The position numbers and the translations under genes are program-made. A stretch of 43,303 bases of DNA from Candidatus Magasanikiibacteriota bacterium (GTDB lineage: Bacteria > Patescibacteriota > Patescibacteriia > Magasanikbacterales > UBA10146): the NCBI GenBank assembly GCA_016212585.1, contig JACRFU010000062.1:1-43303 (forward strand), read 5' to 3'. The notes under the pieces are model-generated. The model was given only the letters and a program-made list of their open reading frames with translations. It did not search any database and was not told the DNA's origin. The stretch's first letter is position 1; the number at the start of each line of letters is the position of its first letter. Positions 2,461-36,749 of this stretch are shown here, in pieces.

Positions 2461-2622
2461 GGGTCTGTCGCCGAATATGCTTTTGTAATGAAATGTACAG
2501 ATTTCGAGACAAAATTGTTGAATAAATTTTGAGGTTTAATTGCAAATTAAGCTGAAAAATTTTGAAACGATTTTGGCCGAAATATGTGCATTGCAGTAAA
2601 AATGGCATTCGTCGACAGACCC
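2461..2622 (+). mobile_element. Family A MITE, full copy 2 (162 bp)
   Basis: GGGTCTGTCGCCGAATATGC...GCATTCGTCGACAGACCC. The whole element is an imperfect palindrome. It ends 1 nt from the stop of the 2624-3241 gene. Confidence 0.9.
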
Positions 2623-8412: not shown

Positions 8413-8573
8413 GGGTCTGTCGCCGCATGCGCTTTTGTAATGAAACGCGCAGATTTCGAGACAAAATTGTTGAATAAATTTTGAGGTTTAATAATTTTTA
8501 AGCTGAAAAATTTTGAAATAATTTTGTCCGAAAGATGCGCGTTGCAATCAAAATGGCATTCGGCGACAGACCC
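8413..8573 (+). mobile_element. Family A MITE, full copy 4 (161 bp) between rplN and rplX
   Basis: GGGTCTGTCGCCGCATGC...GCATTCGGCGACAGACCC. It begins 3 nt after the rplN stop and ends 11 nt before the rplX ATG. Confidence 0.9.
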
Positions 8574-11495: not shown

Positions 11496-12323
11496 TTATT
11501 TACGATGTTGGATTATTAAAAAGTTGCTCCATTTCTTGCGTTTGCGCGTCTTAACCCCCAGCGCAGGCTTACCTTGCGGAGTTTCCGGACGACGCATACC
11601 GATTGGGTTGTGTCCCTCGCCGCCACCGTGCGGATGATCAACAGGATTCATGGCTTTTCCGCGCACTGACGGTCTCCAGCCCATATGGCGTCTGCGTCCC
11701 GCTTTGCCAAGACGGATCAAATTGCGGTCGGGATTGCTCAAAACGCCAATCGTCGCGGCGCATTCTTGGCTCACTTTTCGTAATTCGCCAGAAGGGAGTT
11801 TAAGTGTGGCATACCCCATTTCAACCGCCATCAACTGTGAACTAGTGCCAGCGCCGCGCACAATTTTACCGCCTTGTCCCGCCAATAATTCTATATTATG
11901 AACCATCTGGCCGACCGGAACAAATTTGAGCGGCATACGAGCGCCTGTTTTTACTTCAATGCGATTTTTTGAACTCAACACGGAGTCTCCTGCCGTAATG
12001 CCCTGCGGAGCCAATATATATGACTTCACTTTATCAGCATATTCAATCAATGCGATACGAGCACCTCTGTTGGGATCATATTCAATGGCGTTCACTGTTG
12101 CGGGTATATCATACCGCTGTTGTTTAAAATCCACCAATCTATAAAATGTGCGCGTGCCTCCTCCTCTGTGGCGCACAGTAATGCGGCCGTTGGAACGGCC
12201 GGTGCGCTTCTTGTGCACCATCATAAGCTTTTTCTCCGGTTTGTGTTTGGTGATATCGTCGAACGCATCCACCATAGTGGCGCGGCGTCCGGGAGTTGTT
12301 GGTTTGTATGTCTTAAATGCCAT
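11496..12323 (-). CDS. rplB: 50S ribosomal protein L2
   Basis: True start is MAFKTYKPTTPGRR. The upstream part of ORF 11496-12410 is MITE read-through. Contains RGKAMNPVDHPHGGGEG. Confidence 0.95.
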   Translation of the reverse strand: MAFKTYKPTTPGRRATMVDAFDDITKHKPEKKLMMVHKKRTGRSNGRITVRHRGGGTRTFYRLVDFKQQRYDIPATVNAIEYDPNRGARIALIEYADKVKSYILAPQGITAGDSVLSSKNRIEVKTGARMPLKFVPVGQMVHNIELLAGQGGKIVRGAGTSSQLMAVEMGYATLKLPSGELRKVSQECAATIGVLSNPDRNLIRLGKAGRRRHMGWRPSVRGKAMNPVDHPHGGGEGHNPIGMRRPETPQGKPALGVKTRKRKKWSNFLIIQHRK

Positions 12324-12325
12324 AG

Positions 12326-12487
12326 GGGTCTGTCGCCGAATGCGCTTTTGAAACGAAATGCGCAGATTTCGAGACAAAATTATTGAATAAATTTTGAGGT
12401 TTAATTGCAAATTAAGCTGAAAAATTTTGAAACAATTATGGCCGAACTATGCATATTGCAGTCAAAATGGCATTCGGCGACAGACCC
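12326..12487 (+). mobile_element. Family A MITE, full copy 5 (162 bp) between rplW and rplB
   Basis: GGGTCTGTCGCCGAATGC...GCATTCGGCGACAGACCC. Flanking 5-mers are CATAG (12321-12325, which contains the rplB start codon) and CATAT (12488-12492). Confidence 0.9.
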
Positions 12488-12494
12488 CATATGA

Positions 12495-12956
12495 TTATAC
12501 CGAACTCAAAAGAGTAATATGGTCTCCTTTGCCGACGGTAACCATTGCCTTCTTCCACGCTTTGCGCGTGCCGCTTCTGCGCCCAAACTGTTTTACTTTC
12601 CCGCGCATGCTCACGATGCGCACTTTGATAACCTTTACTTTAAAAACTGATTCAACCGCTTTTTTCACTTCTACTTTATTAGTGTTTTTTGCGACTTCAA
12701 ATACATATTGATTTTGTGTTTGGTGCAAGGTGTTCTTCTCCGTGAGAAGAGGACGCAATAATACGCGATGCGCGCCGCCAGTGGCGCGTGGTTTTTCTTC
12801 AATAGACGGTGTGGAAACAACCACTTCTGTTTCCTTGTTGGATTTTAATGATACAGTTTTTTCTGCAACAGCAACAATCACAGGTGTTTTTTTTTGTTGC
12901 GTTACTTGTTTTTTCTGCTCTTCTTTTTTATTTTTGTACCAATTAAAAATACTCAT
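12495..12956 (-). CDS. rplW: 50S ribosomal protein L23 with a ~55-aa N-terminal extension
   Basis: The C-terminal ~95 aa (LLRPLLTEKNT...FEVAKNTNKVEVKKAVE...KKAMVTV) are canonical L23. The N-terminal part is Lys/Glu/Thr-rich. Confidence 0.9.
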   Translation of the reverse strand: MSIFNWYKNKKEEQKKQVTQQKKTPVIVAVAEKTVSLKSNKETEVVVSTPSIEEKPRATGGAHRVLLRPLLTEKNTLHQTQNQYVFEVAKNTNKVEVKKAVESVFKVKVIKVRIVSMRGKVKQFGRRSGTRKAWKKAMVTVGKGDHITLLSSV

Positions 12957-32090: not shown

Positions 32091-32124
32091 ATGATATATA
32101 AAAAATAACTTATGGCTCAATTAT

Positions 32125-32204
32125 GAGTCTGCCGCCGAATGCTATGCCCGTAACAAAATGTACGTATGCGCATTGCAGTCAAAATTGCATTCGGTGGCAG
32201 ATCC
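32125..32204 (+). mobile_element. Family A internally deleted derivative (80 bp), copy 7
   Basis: GAGTCTGCCGCCGAATGCTATGCCCGTAACAAAATG joined to TACGTATGCGCATTGCAGTCAAAATTGCATTCGGTGGCAGATCC. Flanked by a perfect direct repeat ATTAT (32120-32124 and 32205-32209). Confidence 0.8.
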
Positions 32205-32221
32205 ATTATATCAGACTCGTG

Positions 32222-32253
32222 AAAAAAAAGAAACTTCAGCGGTTTGACTGAAG
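32222..32253 (-). terminator. Intrinsic terminator downstream of the 32288-32953 gene
   Basis: CTTCAG, 8-nt loop, CTGAAG, followed on the minus strand by TTTCTTTTTTTT. Confidence 0.55.
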
Positions 32254-32287
32254 TGTGGAAAAATTGGTTTGACATCGCCTCGTATGA

Positions 32288-32953
32288 TTACGCGGATGGC
32301 GCGTCCAAAGCAGTTGAATCTGCTTCTTGCTTAAAAGCTCCGCGCAATAGATCACACAGATACCGGCGGGCATGGCCGTGGTCAAGCCGCCAGCTTTCAA
32401 GCAACGCGTAGAGCACATGCATGGTTTCCAGACGATCACTGATCAGTGTCCGATGAGGATGATTATCATGGATATCTCCAACGCAATCACCAACCACCAG
32501 TGCACGATCGAATTTTCGTGTCTGACGATTGTAAAGTTGAAAAATCCATCCATGCGGCAATGGAGACACTCTTATCTCGTCGATATAAACACGCAAAGTC
32601 AAGTTGAGAGATGCCTTGACAAACATGCTCATATCACGCACTCGCGCGATAGTCCTCACTGTTGTATCAAAAAGATACACTGCGGTCGATGCTCTTTGCT
32701 CACCATATAATGACTCGTCGAAATTAATAAGGTGGATACCAAGCTGAATGCAATTCGCTGGATCCGCAAGATCAATCGCGTCGGCGAGCATCTCATAAAG
32801 AAACACGTCGTGAGATACATCATGCGCTCTTTCGCAAGAGGTCAGGTATCCCGCTACAATAGGAAGCACCGCGCGCCAAGACATATAATGAACATCTCCA
32901 AGATGTTGAAGGTGTTGAGTTGTTTCAAGGAGCAATAGAAGTTTGCTATCCAT
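32288..32953 (-). CDS. Hypothetical protein (221 aa), His/Asp-rich, no recognisable domain
   Basis: Start placed at MDSKLLLLLE, preceded by GGGAGG 5 nt upstream. Looks GC-richer than neighbours by eye. Bracketed by family A remnants. Confidence 0.65.
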   Translation of the reverse strand: MDSKLLLLLETTQHLQHLGDVHYMSWRAVLPIVAGYLTSCERAHDVSHDVFLYEMLADAIDLADPANCIQLGIHLINFDESLYGEQRASTAVYLFDTTVRTIARVRDMSMFVKASLNLTLRVYIDEIRVSPLPHGWIFQLYNRQTRKFDRALVVGDCVGDIHDNHPHRTLISDRLETMHVLYALLESWRLDHGHARRYLCDLLRGAFKQEADSTALDAPSA

Positions 32954-32964
32954 CTTAACCTCCC

Positions 32965-33053
32965 ACAAAATGTGGTTGAATGATACACTGAGACGAAAAA
33001 TTTTGAAACAACTATGGCCGAACTATGTCAAAATGGCATTCGACGACAGACAC
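32965..33053 (+). repeat. Family A partial copy 8 (right half, left terminus missing)
   Basis: ..GAAAAATTTTGAAACAACTATGGCCGAACTATG-TCAAAATGGCATTCGACGACAGACAC matches the right half of copy 5. Confidence 0.75.
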
Positions 33054-33149
33054 AATACAAGACCATATCACATTTCAAACACAAACGCAACATCGGATAG
33101 GATATGTGTCAACGGGAAATAGAAATGTCCTATAGACATCCTGCCTTAA

Positions 33150-35287: not shown

Positions 35288-36749
35288 CTATTTCAACTTT
35301 TTTACCCATCCATGGTTTGCGTTCACCTCAACTATATCGCCATCACGCAACACTTCCGTCGCAATCTTGGTACCGATAATGCTTGGAATGCCAAGCTCAC
35401 GGGAAACAATCGCCGCGTGAGAAGTAATGCCTCCTTCACTAGTTACTATTGCCGCGGCTTTTTTCATTGCAGGGGACTGTCGCCGAATGCGCTTTTGTAA
35501 CGAAATTTCCAGATTTCTGGACACAATTGTTGAATACATTTTGAGGTTTAACAGGAGTTAAGCCGAAAAATGTTGAAACAATTTTGGATGAAATAGGGGA
35601 ATTGCAGTCAAAATGGCATTCGGCGACAGTCCCTGCAGTGATATAATCCGGCCGCGTCATGACCGCTACCAAAATATCACCCTGTTTAACTTTGTCGGCT
35701 TCCGTGGCCGAATTAAGTATGCGCACAGGGCCAATTGCTCTGCCGGTTGAAGCGGATAACCCCCTAAAATCATCAACTTGGTCATGTGGTTTTTGCCCCA
35801 AAACCATTTTTTTCAATTCTTCCAAGCACGCGCTTGGTACCACCTCAAACGCTTCTCCGACCACAATAAATCCGGATTTTTTTCTACCTTGCAATTCTTT
35901 TCGCGACGGTTCTCTTTTTGACATAATATCTTTAATTTCTACCGGATAGGCAAATTTCAACTCATCCAATGTATAATCCGTGCGCCGGACAACTTCTTTC
36001 AAAATAGTACAACCCATATCAATGTTAAAATAGGTTGCTTTTTTACACTTATCTTGCCACCATGTAAAATCTTCCGAGATCTGTATGAGCGCGCGCAGAA
36101 GCGCGGACAATTTTACTTTTTTAAACAGCGCTTGTTTTTTTATTCTATTCAAGCGCGGCGTTTCATACAAATGTTTCAATTCCTTCTTTAAATCTTTGCC
36201 GCTTTTTTTCCACGCTCTGATTTCTTCTTGAAAATGCTTCACACTCAACACCTGCGCTGTGATATAATTATTCTTGCTCCAATACGAGCGCTTTTGATAG
36301 GCGACTAAATTATCCTTGGAAACGCCCACTATAATTTTAAGCAGTTCTATTTCCGCCTGATTGCTAAATGATTGATGCACGGGCGCAGTGGCAATGCTAA
36401 AAATTTCAGTAAATTGTGATTCTTTAAATCTCGCGGAATTTTTTGAGCCATATAATTCCTTGCGCAGTAGCGCGCTGATAATCTCGTCCGTGCCCAAAGC
36501 AAAATGATCAATCAAAATTGTTGAAGTGGCGCAATTGATGAATAACGTATAGGTGGTATTCCACACTTCAAGAAGTTGCGCATCGGAACATTTTTTTAAA
36601 TCAATCGCAGGGAATGTTTTCCAAAAATATCGTTCATATATCTGTTCATCTTTTTTCCATTTCTTGAGCAATTTTGTTGAAAGCCGAGGGTCTTTTTTGG
36701 CAAGCTCAACAAACCGTTTTGCCGCACACCGTATATCACCCATTTCCAA
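35288..36749 (-). pseudogene. PEP-utilising-enzyme-like gene (paralog of 38734-40167) split by family A copy 9
   Basis: The upstream part ends ..ILVAVMTRPDYITA and the downstream part starts [28 protein letters not shown]. The intact paralog has ..[42 protein letters not shown], so the 166-nt insertion (161-bp element plus 5-bp duplication) sits exactly between A and M. Confidence 0.85.
35473..35633 (+). mobile_element. Family A MITE, full copy 9 (161 bp, subfamily A2) inside a coding sequence
   Basis: GGGACTGTCGCCGAATGC...GCATTCGGCGACAGTCCC, flanked by a perfect 5-bp direct repeat TGCAG (35468-35472 and 35634-35638). Confidence 0.92.

Follow-up and report, generated by a model that had tools for sequence, protein, structure and literature searches.

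How is ribosomal protein L2 still made in a cell in which a long hairpin stands between its gene, rplB, and the preceding gene, rplW? The question is raised by the rplW-rplB junction in a 43,303-nucleotide (nt) stretch of DNA from a Candidatus Magasanikiibacteriota bacterium (contig JACRFU010000062.1; the whole stretch is called the window here, and it is contig C41 of genome G000), where the distance from the rplW stop codon to the rplB ATG is now 171 nt. All coordinates are those of the window, and the genes of the rplW/rplB cluster all lie on its minus strand. The feature between the two genes is a recent insertion of a high-copy, non-autonomous miniature inverted-repeat transposable element (MITE) into a coupled ribosomal-gene junction. 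That the MITE entered the pentamer ATATG spanning the rplB start codon, so that a tight TAA-NNNN-ATG junction before the insertion became one with two ATGs after it, we regard as almost certain. We favor, with little more than even confidence, a fuller account in which the additional ATG (the decoy) is a by-product of the insertion, L2 is made by way of the ribosome traffic on rplW, and the hairpin is tolerated.

The insertion can be read from its target site duplication (TSD) and from an empty site. In mRNA sense, a 162-bp core beginning with GGG and ending with CCC (12326 to 12487) is preceded by ATATG (12488 to 12492) and followed by CTATG (12321 to 12325), the first base of which differs. 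On the plus strand, these are the 5-mers CATAT (12488 to 12492) and CATAG (12321 to 12325), which the initial annotation had placed at the flanks of the element and which a comparison of 48 copies identifies as a true 5-bp TSD with one mismatch. In the sole genome of the same genus (G001, with an L2 90% identical), the site is empty, ...CTCTTTTGAGTTCGGTATAAGCATATGGCATTTAAG; the junction there reads ...CACATTACTCTTTTGAGTTCGGTATAA-GCAT-ATGGCATTTAAG (in short form, GGTATAA-GCAT-ATGGCATTTAAG), and the window minus the core and one TSD copy reads GGTATAA-TCAT-ATGGCATTTAAG. The sole difference is the base after the stop codon, outside the TSD, and the reconstruction can be taken as proven by the G001 empty site apart from this one base. 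Comparing orthologous junctions in MITE-free relatives, as the initial annotation had proposed, therefore gave the result expected from a target duplication; of the TAA-tcat-ATG that it had deduced for the time before the insertion, the TAA-NNNN-ATG arrangement with its 4-nt spacer stands, and the spacer itself differs at one base, being gcat in G001. The ancestral pentamer was ATATG, identical to the present upstream copy, and the first base of the downstream copy is now C. The rplW-rplB spacer is 2 to 8 nt long in 11 of 15 relatives of the order, with TATG invariant, and the ancestral state of the junction is, as judged from sequence, a tight and coupled one. In the genus of another genome of the same order (G030, locus L004, 1420 to 1502), the spacer is ∼80 nt long and contains two small hairpins (gcgaagc...gcttcgc and agccaaaaat...atttttggct; ΔG of −26 kcal/mol, z = −2.5), which is an independent expansion of the rplW-rplB junction.

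A deleterious allele, a polymorphic one, or a chimeric assembly might also present itself in this way, with the functional population keeping the empty site (GGTATAATCATATGGCATTT). The metagenome-assembled genome (MAG) is fragmented at copies of the repeat: 60 of its 150 contig ends are no more than 200 nt away from a family copy, indicating that the repeat breaks up the assembly. However, the window shows rplW and rplB running without a break into the two junctions and their TSD, and so do separate Logan contigs of SRR12113407, which end inside the repeat from both sides and reproduce both junctions. These contigs were reached by exact-protein look-ups with L23 and S19 (look-ups with L2, as the 275-amino-acid [aa] and the 304-aa forms, matched nothing), and no contig with an empty site was found among the Logan records for the same L23 or S19. 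Moreover, a precise TSD cannot be produced by misassembly. We therefore consider such an allele or chimera very unlikely.

The element belongs to a large family. Its 19-nt terminus occurs 14 times in the window, versus 0 expected, and its terminal inverted repeats (TIRs), GGGTCTGTCGCCGAATGC at the 5′ end (12470 to 12487, the 5′ strand of the basal stem of the hairpin) and GCATTCGGCGACAGACCC at the 3′ end (12326 to 12343, the 3′ strand), are complementary at 18 of 18 positions. BLAST found 188 family loci (77 of them ≥150 bp), amounting to 2.3% of the 930,977-bp, 75-contig genome. In the 48 full-length copies, the GGG...CCC core is 161 to 163 bp long, the 5-bp TSD is perfect in 25 copies and matches at four of five positions in 9 more, and the target logo, built from 193 termini, is A-T-W-A-T followed by a purine. 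Four full-length copies lie in the window (2461 to 2622, 8413 to 8573, 12326 to 12487, and 35473 to 35633), and the copy at rplB is 96% identical to the nearest family copy. The identity of the element as a MITE is clear from every structural feature, namely, TIRs, a TSD of fixed length together with an empty site, small size, dispersed copies, and the lack of a transposase. The core, a near-palindrome, has no protein family match, and no Rfam match was found in the window. Termini of the form TGGG...CCCA with a 2-bp (TA) or 3-bp TSD were rejected, as the 48 copies put the variable outer bases in the 5-bp TSD. The same-genus genome G001 has only ∼10 matches to the family, and these are more diverged; this scarcity indicates a lineage-specific burst.

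The mismatch between the two TSD copies at rplB (12325 versus 12492) falls at a favored place. Among the nine copies with a single TSD mismatch, six have it at position 1 (binomial against 0.2, P = 0.003), which is the base adjoining the CCC end on one side of the element and the outermost base on the other. A 4+1 staggered cut or imprecise repair is a possible cause, and because six of the nine family mismatches share the position, the downstream A-to-C change may be mechanistic rather than a later substitution.

What, then, did the insertion do to the two genes? On the minus strand, rplW (12495 to 12956; L23 of 153 aa with an N-terminal extension, identified by NCBIfam L23 equivalog models and PF00276) ends in GGT ATA-A with its TAA at 12497 to 12495. 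The spacer tcat, the decoy ATG (12490 to 12488, within the upstream TSD copy), the core, the dinucleotide CT, and the genuine rplB ATG (12323 to 12321, within the downstream TSD copy and predicted to be base paired in the base of the stem) follow in this order. rplB (11496 to 12323; L2 of 275 aa) continues after its ATG with GCATTTAAG (protein start, MAFKTYKPTTPGRR) and is a single-copy gene, with one match in the genome. It matches TIGR01171 (rplB_bact) over the full model length with 371 bits, residues 4 to 275 aligning with profile positions 2 to 274 of 275. Given the fits of TIGR01171 and of the L23 models, both gene identities are secure, and the ATG at 12323 is the regular start of L2. 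The decoy heads an open reading frame (ORF) of 29 codons plus TAA (MGSVAECHFDCNMHSSAIIVSKFFSLICN; 12401 to 12490), which spans the whole 5′ arm; its stop codon (12403 to 12401) consists of the final three bases of the apical AATTAA. The apex is a mini-stem, TTAATT-TGC-AATTAA (12401 to 12415), with its loop at 12409 to 12407, the midpoint of the element being at 12406.5. The anatomy described in the initial annotation, with an ATG 4 nt past the rplW stop, a 29-codon ORF ending at the hairpin apex, and the true rplB ATG 2 nt beyond the other end of the element, was thus recovered in the sequence, the ORF list, and the fold. The 29-aa product had no protein family match in the profile search.

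The evidence does not single the decoy out as special. A second ATG was unavoidable, because the ATG sat inside the duplicated pentamer ATATG, and any TSD ending in AT would also recreate an ATG, because the core begins with G. A start codon is present at the upstream junction in 10 of the 12 full copies that adjoin gene starts (9 ATG and 1 TTG); these junction decoys fall into two frames (+0 at rplB and +1 at sites where ...AT is followed by G) and open ORFs of 9 to 29 codons. Since the start codon arises automatically, its apparent conservation carries no information on selection. The rplB copy differs from the family consensus at 12 positions, all of which are common to at least 5 other copies, leaving zero private substitutions, and its 28-codon open frame is also found in 17 of the 48 copies. 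Preferential targeting of start codons was rejected as well: 10.9% of termini are inserted ≤14 nt from a gene start, compared with 11.3% under a null model of AT-rich intergenic pentamers, and the rplB site was not targeted, given that the start-adjacent frequency equals the null. Private substitutions, the automatic start, and enrichment at starts gave no sign of selection on the decoy ORF or its start codon. We infer that the decoy ATG and its ORF are an unselected mechanical by-product of transposition chemistry and not a purpose-built device.

The hairpin itself was examined by folding. RNA 12510 to 12300 folds into a single long hairpin with a ΔG of −66.8 kcal/mol (z = −6.9; 0 of 200 shuffled sequences folded as well), the basal stem of which is a perfect duplex of 19 to 20 bp. 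The stem is predicted to reach past the TIRs, with pairing between the flanking sequences UCAUA, which follows the rplW stop, and UAUGG. In the ensemble of the free RNA, the three bases of the rplB AUG have probabilities of being unpaired of 0.05, 0.03, and 0.01, and two of the three bases of the decoy AUG are paired too. The decoy ORF, in the 5′ arm, overlaps the strand predicted to pair with the rplB start, the rplB AUG pairing beside or inside the upstream TSD copy. No Shine-Dalgarno (SD) signal was detected genome-wide: with crude gene calls, GGAG, GAGG, or AGGA was found upstream of 7.7% of starts, versus a background of 7.8%. The regions upstream of starts in this genome are A/T-rich by the same calls. 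Because there is no SD signal, start choice should depend on local structure and accessibility, and because start selection is presumably accessibility dependent, sequestration of the rplB AUG becomes more consequential.

Folding with constraints that represent a ribosome on the RNA distinguished several states. A footprint that covered the rplW stop kept the base of the stem open on its 5′ side and left the rplB AUG outside the long helix. When the ribosome was instead placed at decoy codon 13 or on the apical stop codon, a 24-bp stem base re-formed behind it, and apex termination is for this reason not the step that would expose the start. If upstream translation unmasks rplB, these models indicate that the relevant states are termination on rplW and the first ∼8 decoy codons. 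The relay that the initial annotation had put forward, in which ribosomes reinitiating at the decoy unwind the first arm and stop at the apex, is therefore credible only after modification, with occupancy of the base of the stem as its essential element.

A true relay would go further. It would make the decoy ORF a requirement, with ribosomes reinitiating on the decoy, their passage or queue permitting initiation on rplB, and selection maintaining the decoy ATG. This would suit a decoy that keeps the exact ancestral context for reinitiation, 4 nt after the stop, an ORF that spans the entire 5′ arm, and the start codons at 10 of 12 comparable sites. But the presence of a start that arises automatically is uninformative, the copy at rplB is without specific changes, the frame and length of the decoy vary among copies as described above, and the predicted basal stem closes again behind a ribosome that is 13 codons in or at the apex. 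We consider a true relay unlikely, and the indirect evidence on the decoy leans toward a by-product over a relay.

The MITE inserted into ATATG across the rplB start codon, and the 5-bp duplication left two ATGs. The upstream ATG keeps the original post-stop context and heads the 29-codon ORF up the 5′ arm; the downstream ATG still heads rplB and is predicted to be paired in the lowest part of a hairpin of roughly −60 kcal/mol. In the account that we prefer, ribosomes completing rplW would keep the 5′ strand of the basal stem single stranded during termination at the UAA, reinitiation on the decoy and reading of its first ∼8 codons would open the basal stem again, and the open stem would transiently unmask the genuine AUG for SD-independent initiation. 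rplB expression would then be strictly coupled to rplW translation, and the hairpin would be a tolerated cost, not a device.

Several points weigh against this account. The unmasking step was modeled as equilibrium folding with an assumed ribosome footprint, and even with the ribosome on the rplW stop, the AUG takes up a weak local pairing of 4 bp, with a probability of being unpaired of only 0.02 to 0.3. The stem has gained a G-C pair from the A-to-C change in the downstream copy of the TSD, which is not the outcome expected under selection against structure, although the change may be neutral or mechanistic. Finally, the orientation bias described below has other possible causes, namely, strand-specific insertion and the AUG that would come to lie 21 nt ahead of the gene in the opposite orientation.

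The hairpin could alternatively act as a structural bridge, a kind of prokaryotic shunt that preserves the coupling over 171 nt. Here, the stem would hold the rplB AUG at the mRNA entry side of the ribosome terminating on rplW, the helicase of that ribosome would melt the 5 to 8 basal pairs that mask the AUG, and the AUG would be used directly, without an SD sequence. If general, such a bridge would explain how ∼190 hairpins, several of them in the ribosomal protein cluster, are tolerated in a 0.93-Mb genome. We regard the bridge as improbable.

The orientation of the copies bears on whether the hairpin is useful or costly. RNA of the orientation found at rplB folds more weakly than the antisense RNA in 48 of 48 copies (means of −62.4 and −75.1 kcal/mol, respectively). 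This weaker-hairpin orientation is favored between codirectional genes (28:13, P = 0.03) and among full copies abutting gene starts (11:1, P = 0.006); when all termini abutting starts are counted, the R end faces the adjacent start at 15:4 (P = 0.02). In the opposite orientation, an AUG (AAAATGGCA) would lie 21 nt upstream of the gene. These data agree with selection against strong structure, or against that AUG, and not with a useful hairpin. They likewise agree with the alternative that the initial annotation had allowed, the hairpin as a cost that the cell tolerates.

Removal of the hairpin in the RNA is another way in which rplB might escape it. RNase III or another nuclease would cut the basal duplex, or a promoter in or at the 3′ arm would give rise to a separate transcript; in both cases, rplB would be read from an mRNA without the 5′ arm, its leader short and unstructured. 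The genome encodes RNase III (C63, 12046 to 12435; PF14622, 132 bits), the perfect duplex of the basal stem measures at least 19 bp, the R end faces adjacent gene starts in the ratio just given, and PMC2649163 describes Neisseria Correia elements that bind RNase III, are cleaved by it, and create promoters at their ends. On the other side, no sigma-70-like promoter was found on the coding strand between 12200 and 12620, and cuts at several MITEs within the ribosomal operon mRNA would uncouple its stoichiometric expression. We consider hairpin removal unlikely. A promoter or terminator inside the element was also sought on the coding strand, and none was found.

An L2 with an extended N terminus would sidestep the masked AUG altogether. 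After the decoy stop, ribosomes would reinitiate at a UUG (12410 to 12408) that lies in the rplB frame in the apical mini-stem, adding 29 residues (MQLNLKIYSIILSRNLRISFQKRIRRQTP-) to the protein. The 304-aa ORF (11496 to 12410, minus strand) is indeed open, the rplB frame running through the whole 3′ arm, and the UUG sits in the apical loop, 4 nt upstream of the decoy stop (5 to 7 nt with the whole codon). In most copies, however, the 3′ arm is free of stops for at least 25 codons in each of its three frames, so an open rplB frame is expected there by chance. L2 homologues and TIGR01171 start at the ATG, and the UUG is without a supporting signal. We therefore consider an extended L2 extremely improbable. 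The 304-aa ORF may lead gene callers to annotate L2 wrongly, with a 29-residue extension encoded by the MITE.

The provenance of the family was traced through its termini, its TSD, and possible transposase partners. The 5-bp AT-rich TSD agrees with the AT-rich TSD of 5 or 6 bp that is one mark of the Tn3-derived TIMEs (PMC4133298). The Tn3 transposase domain PF01526 is absent from G000, though not absolutely so since the assembly is 95% complete, and among 240 genomes of the order, just 3 have it. One genome of the order (G074, contig C47; L042, 80 to 3640) carries a compact Tn3-family element of 3.56 kb, with a transposase frame open for 1,031 codons. The 36-bp inverted repeats (IRs) of this element, GGGTACGATTGTAAAG... 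(GGGTACGATTG...), share only GGGT with those of the MITE family; this is the sole complete Tn3-type element recovered in the order, and the comparison of IRs was confined to it. The MITE termini resemble Tn3 IRs over the first ∼12 bases, a likeness that does not establish a link. A Tn3 origin is accordingly no more than possible, given that the genome lacks PF01526, that few genomes of the order have it, and that the IRs of the complete Tn3-like element differ. An autonomous partner with the same termini was also sought; only two TIR pairs spanning more than 200 bp had 4/5 TSD matches, and both proved to be the ends of separate MITEs.

The exact 18-mer terminus was found at further loci, L050, L070, L077, L079, and L063 among them: as MITE-sized pairs in MAGs labeled Magasanikbacteria, Kerfeldbacteria, and Azambacteria and in one bin labeled uncultured Gammaproteobacteria, and as single exact matches in a Falkowbacteria MAG and in further Patescibacteria MAGs. 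This distribution across several lineages of the candidate phyla radiation (CPR) puts the host within the Patescibacteria and suggests horizontal spread. About 17 single 18-mer matches in GC-rich, non-CPR Proteobacteria and Actinobacteria were discarded, as this number equals the chance expectation for 596 Gb; one of them (L047) was examined, and no transposase was found there.

How does the family compare with known elements? Like the Neisseria Correia elements (CREE), the enterobacterial ERIC, and the pneumococcal RUP and BOX elements, it consists of multicopy, noncoding units of ∼160 bp with TIRs and a target duplication, which are mostly intergenic and form a long RNA hairpin when cotranscribed. 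CREE are reported to act on neighboring genes by way of RNase III and of promoters that lie at the ends of the elements (PMC2649163). Unlike all of these elements, the present family is unrelated in sequence, and its host has a 0.93-Mb genome of the Patescibacteria type without detectable SD usage. Its TSD is 5 bp (ATWAT), whereas that of CREE is TA, and the termini are unrelated, which places it outside the Correia family. With the TIMEs it shares a 5-bp AT-rich TSD, GGG(G) termini, the lack of a transposase, and a comparable hairpin energy; TIMEs have RNA hairpins of −70 to −115 kcal/mol, a length of 262 bp, and 38-bp IRs homologous to those of the Tn3 family, and they are usually present in single copy (PMC4133298). 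The present family differs from them in its perfect 18- to 19-bp termini, its length of 162 bp, its ∼188 loci, and the lack of a Tn3 transposase in the genome. We found no relevant report in the literature on MITEs in CPR or Patescibacteria.

As for the arrangement of the genes, the ancestral TAA-NNNN-ATG is the classic coupled arrangement of termination-reinitiation junctions, and, as in MS2 coat-replicase and leader peptide coupling, the predicted pairing partner of the downstream start lies in sequence that the upstream ribosome must occupy. In contrast to those coupling systems, the predicted masking structure here is an accidental transposon hairpin, and the leader ORF derives from a TSD. 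Unlike known MITEs in operons, this insertion splits a 4-nt coupled junction between two essential ribosomal protein genes and duplicates a start codon. As a MITE insertion it is an ordinary one at an exceptionally delicate site, and its importance comes mainly from the setting: an essential gene pair, a host without SD sequences, and a very small genome. The locus is a natural experiment: the L23/L2 pair, essential and formerly tightly coupled, is now separated by a duplicated start and a hairpin with an energy near −60 kcal/mol. An answer to the question of L2 synthesis would reveal how coupling and initiation without SD sequences deal with strong structure, as well as how a burst of MITEs (∼188 loci, 2.3% of the genome) can be borne by streamlined genomes of Patescibacteria.

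Other members of the family were seen in the window and elsewhere in the genome. At 32124 to 33054 of the window, a 226-aa ORF (32288 to 32968, minus strand), for which no Pfam match was found, lies between a solo R end and a short, internally deleted derivative of the element (∼80 to 97 bp, with the TSD ATTAT). Copies also lie 0 to 11 nt from the starts of other essential or large genes (window, 8413 to 8573; C69, 3932 to 4094; C45, 8263 to 8424; C75, 2303 to 2463; and C71, 18468). The genes with such start-adjacent copies include rplX (L24), a SecA-like ORF of 956 aa starting with MSFFKKLFGDPN, and a CysS-like ORF. At the C69 copy, the TSD, ATAAT, contained a TAATG stop-start overlap.

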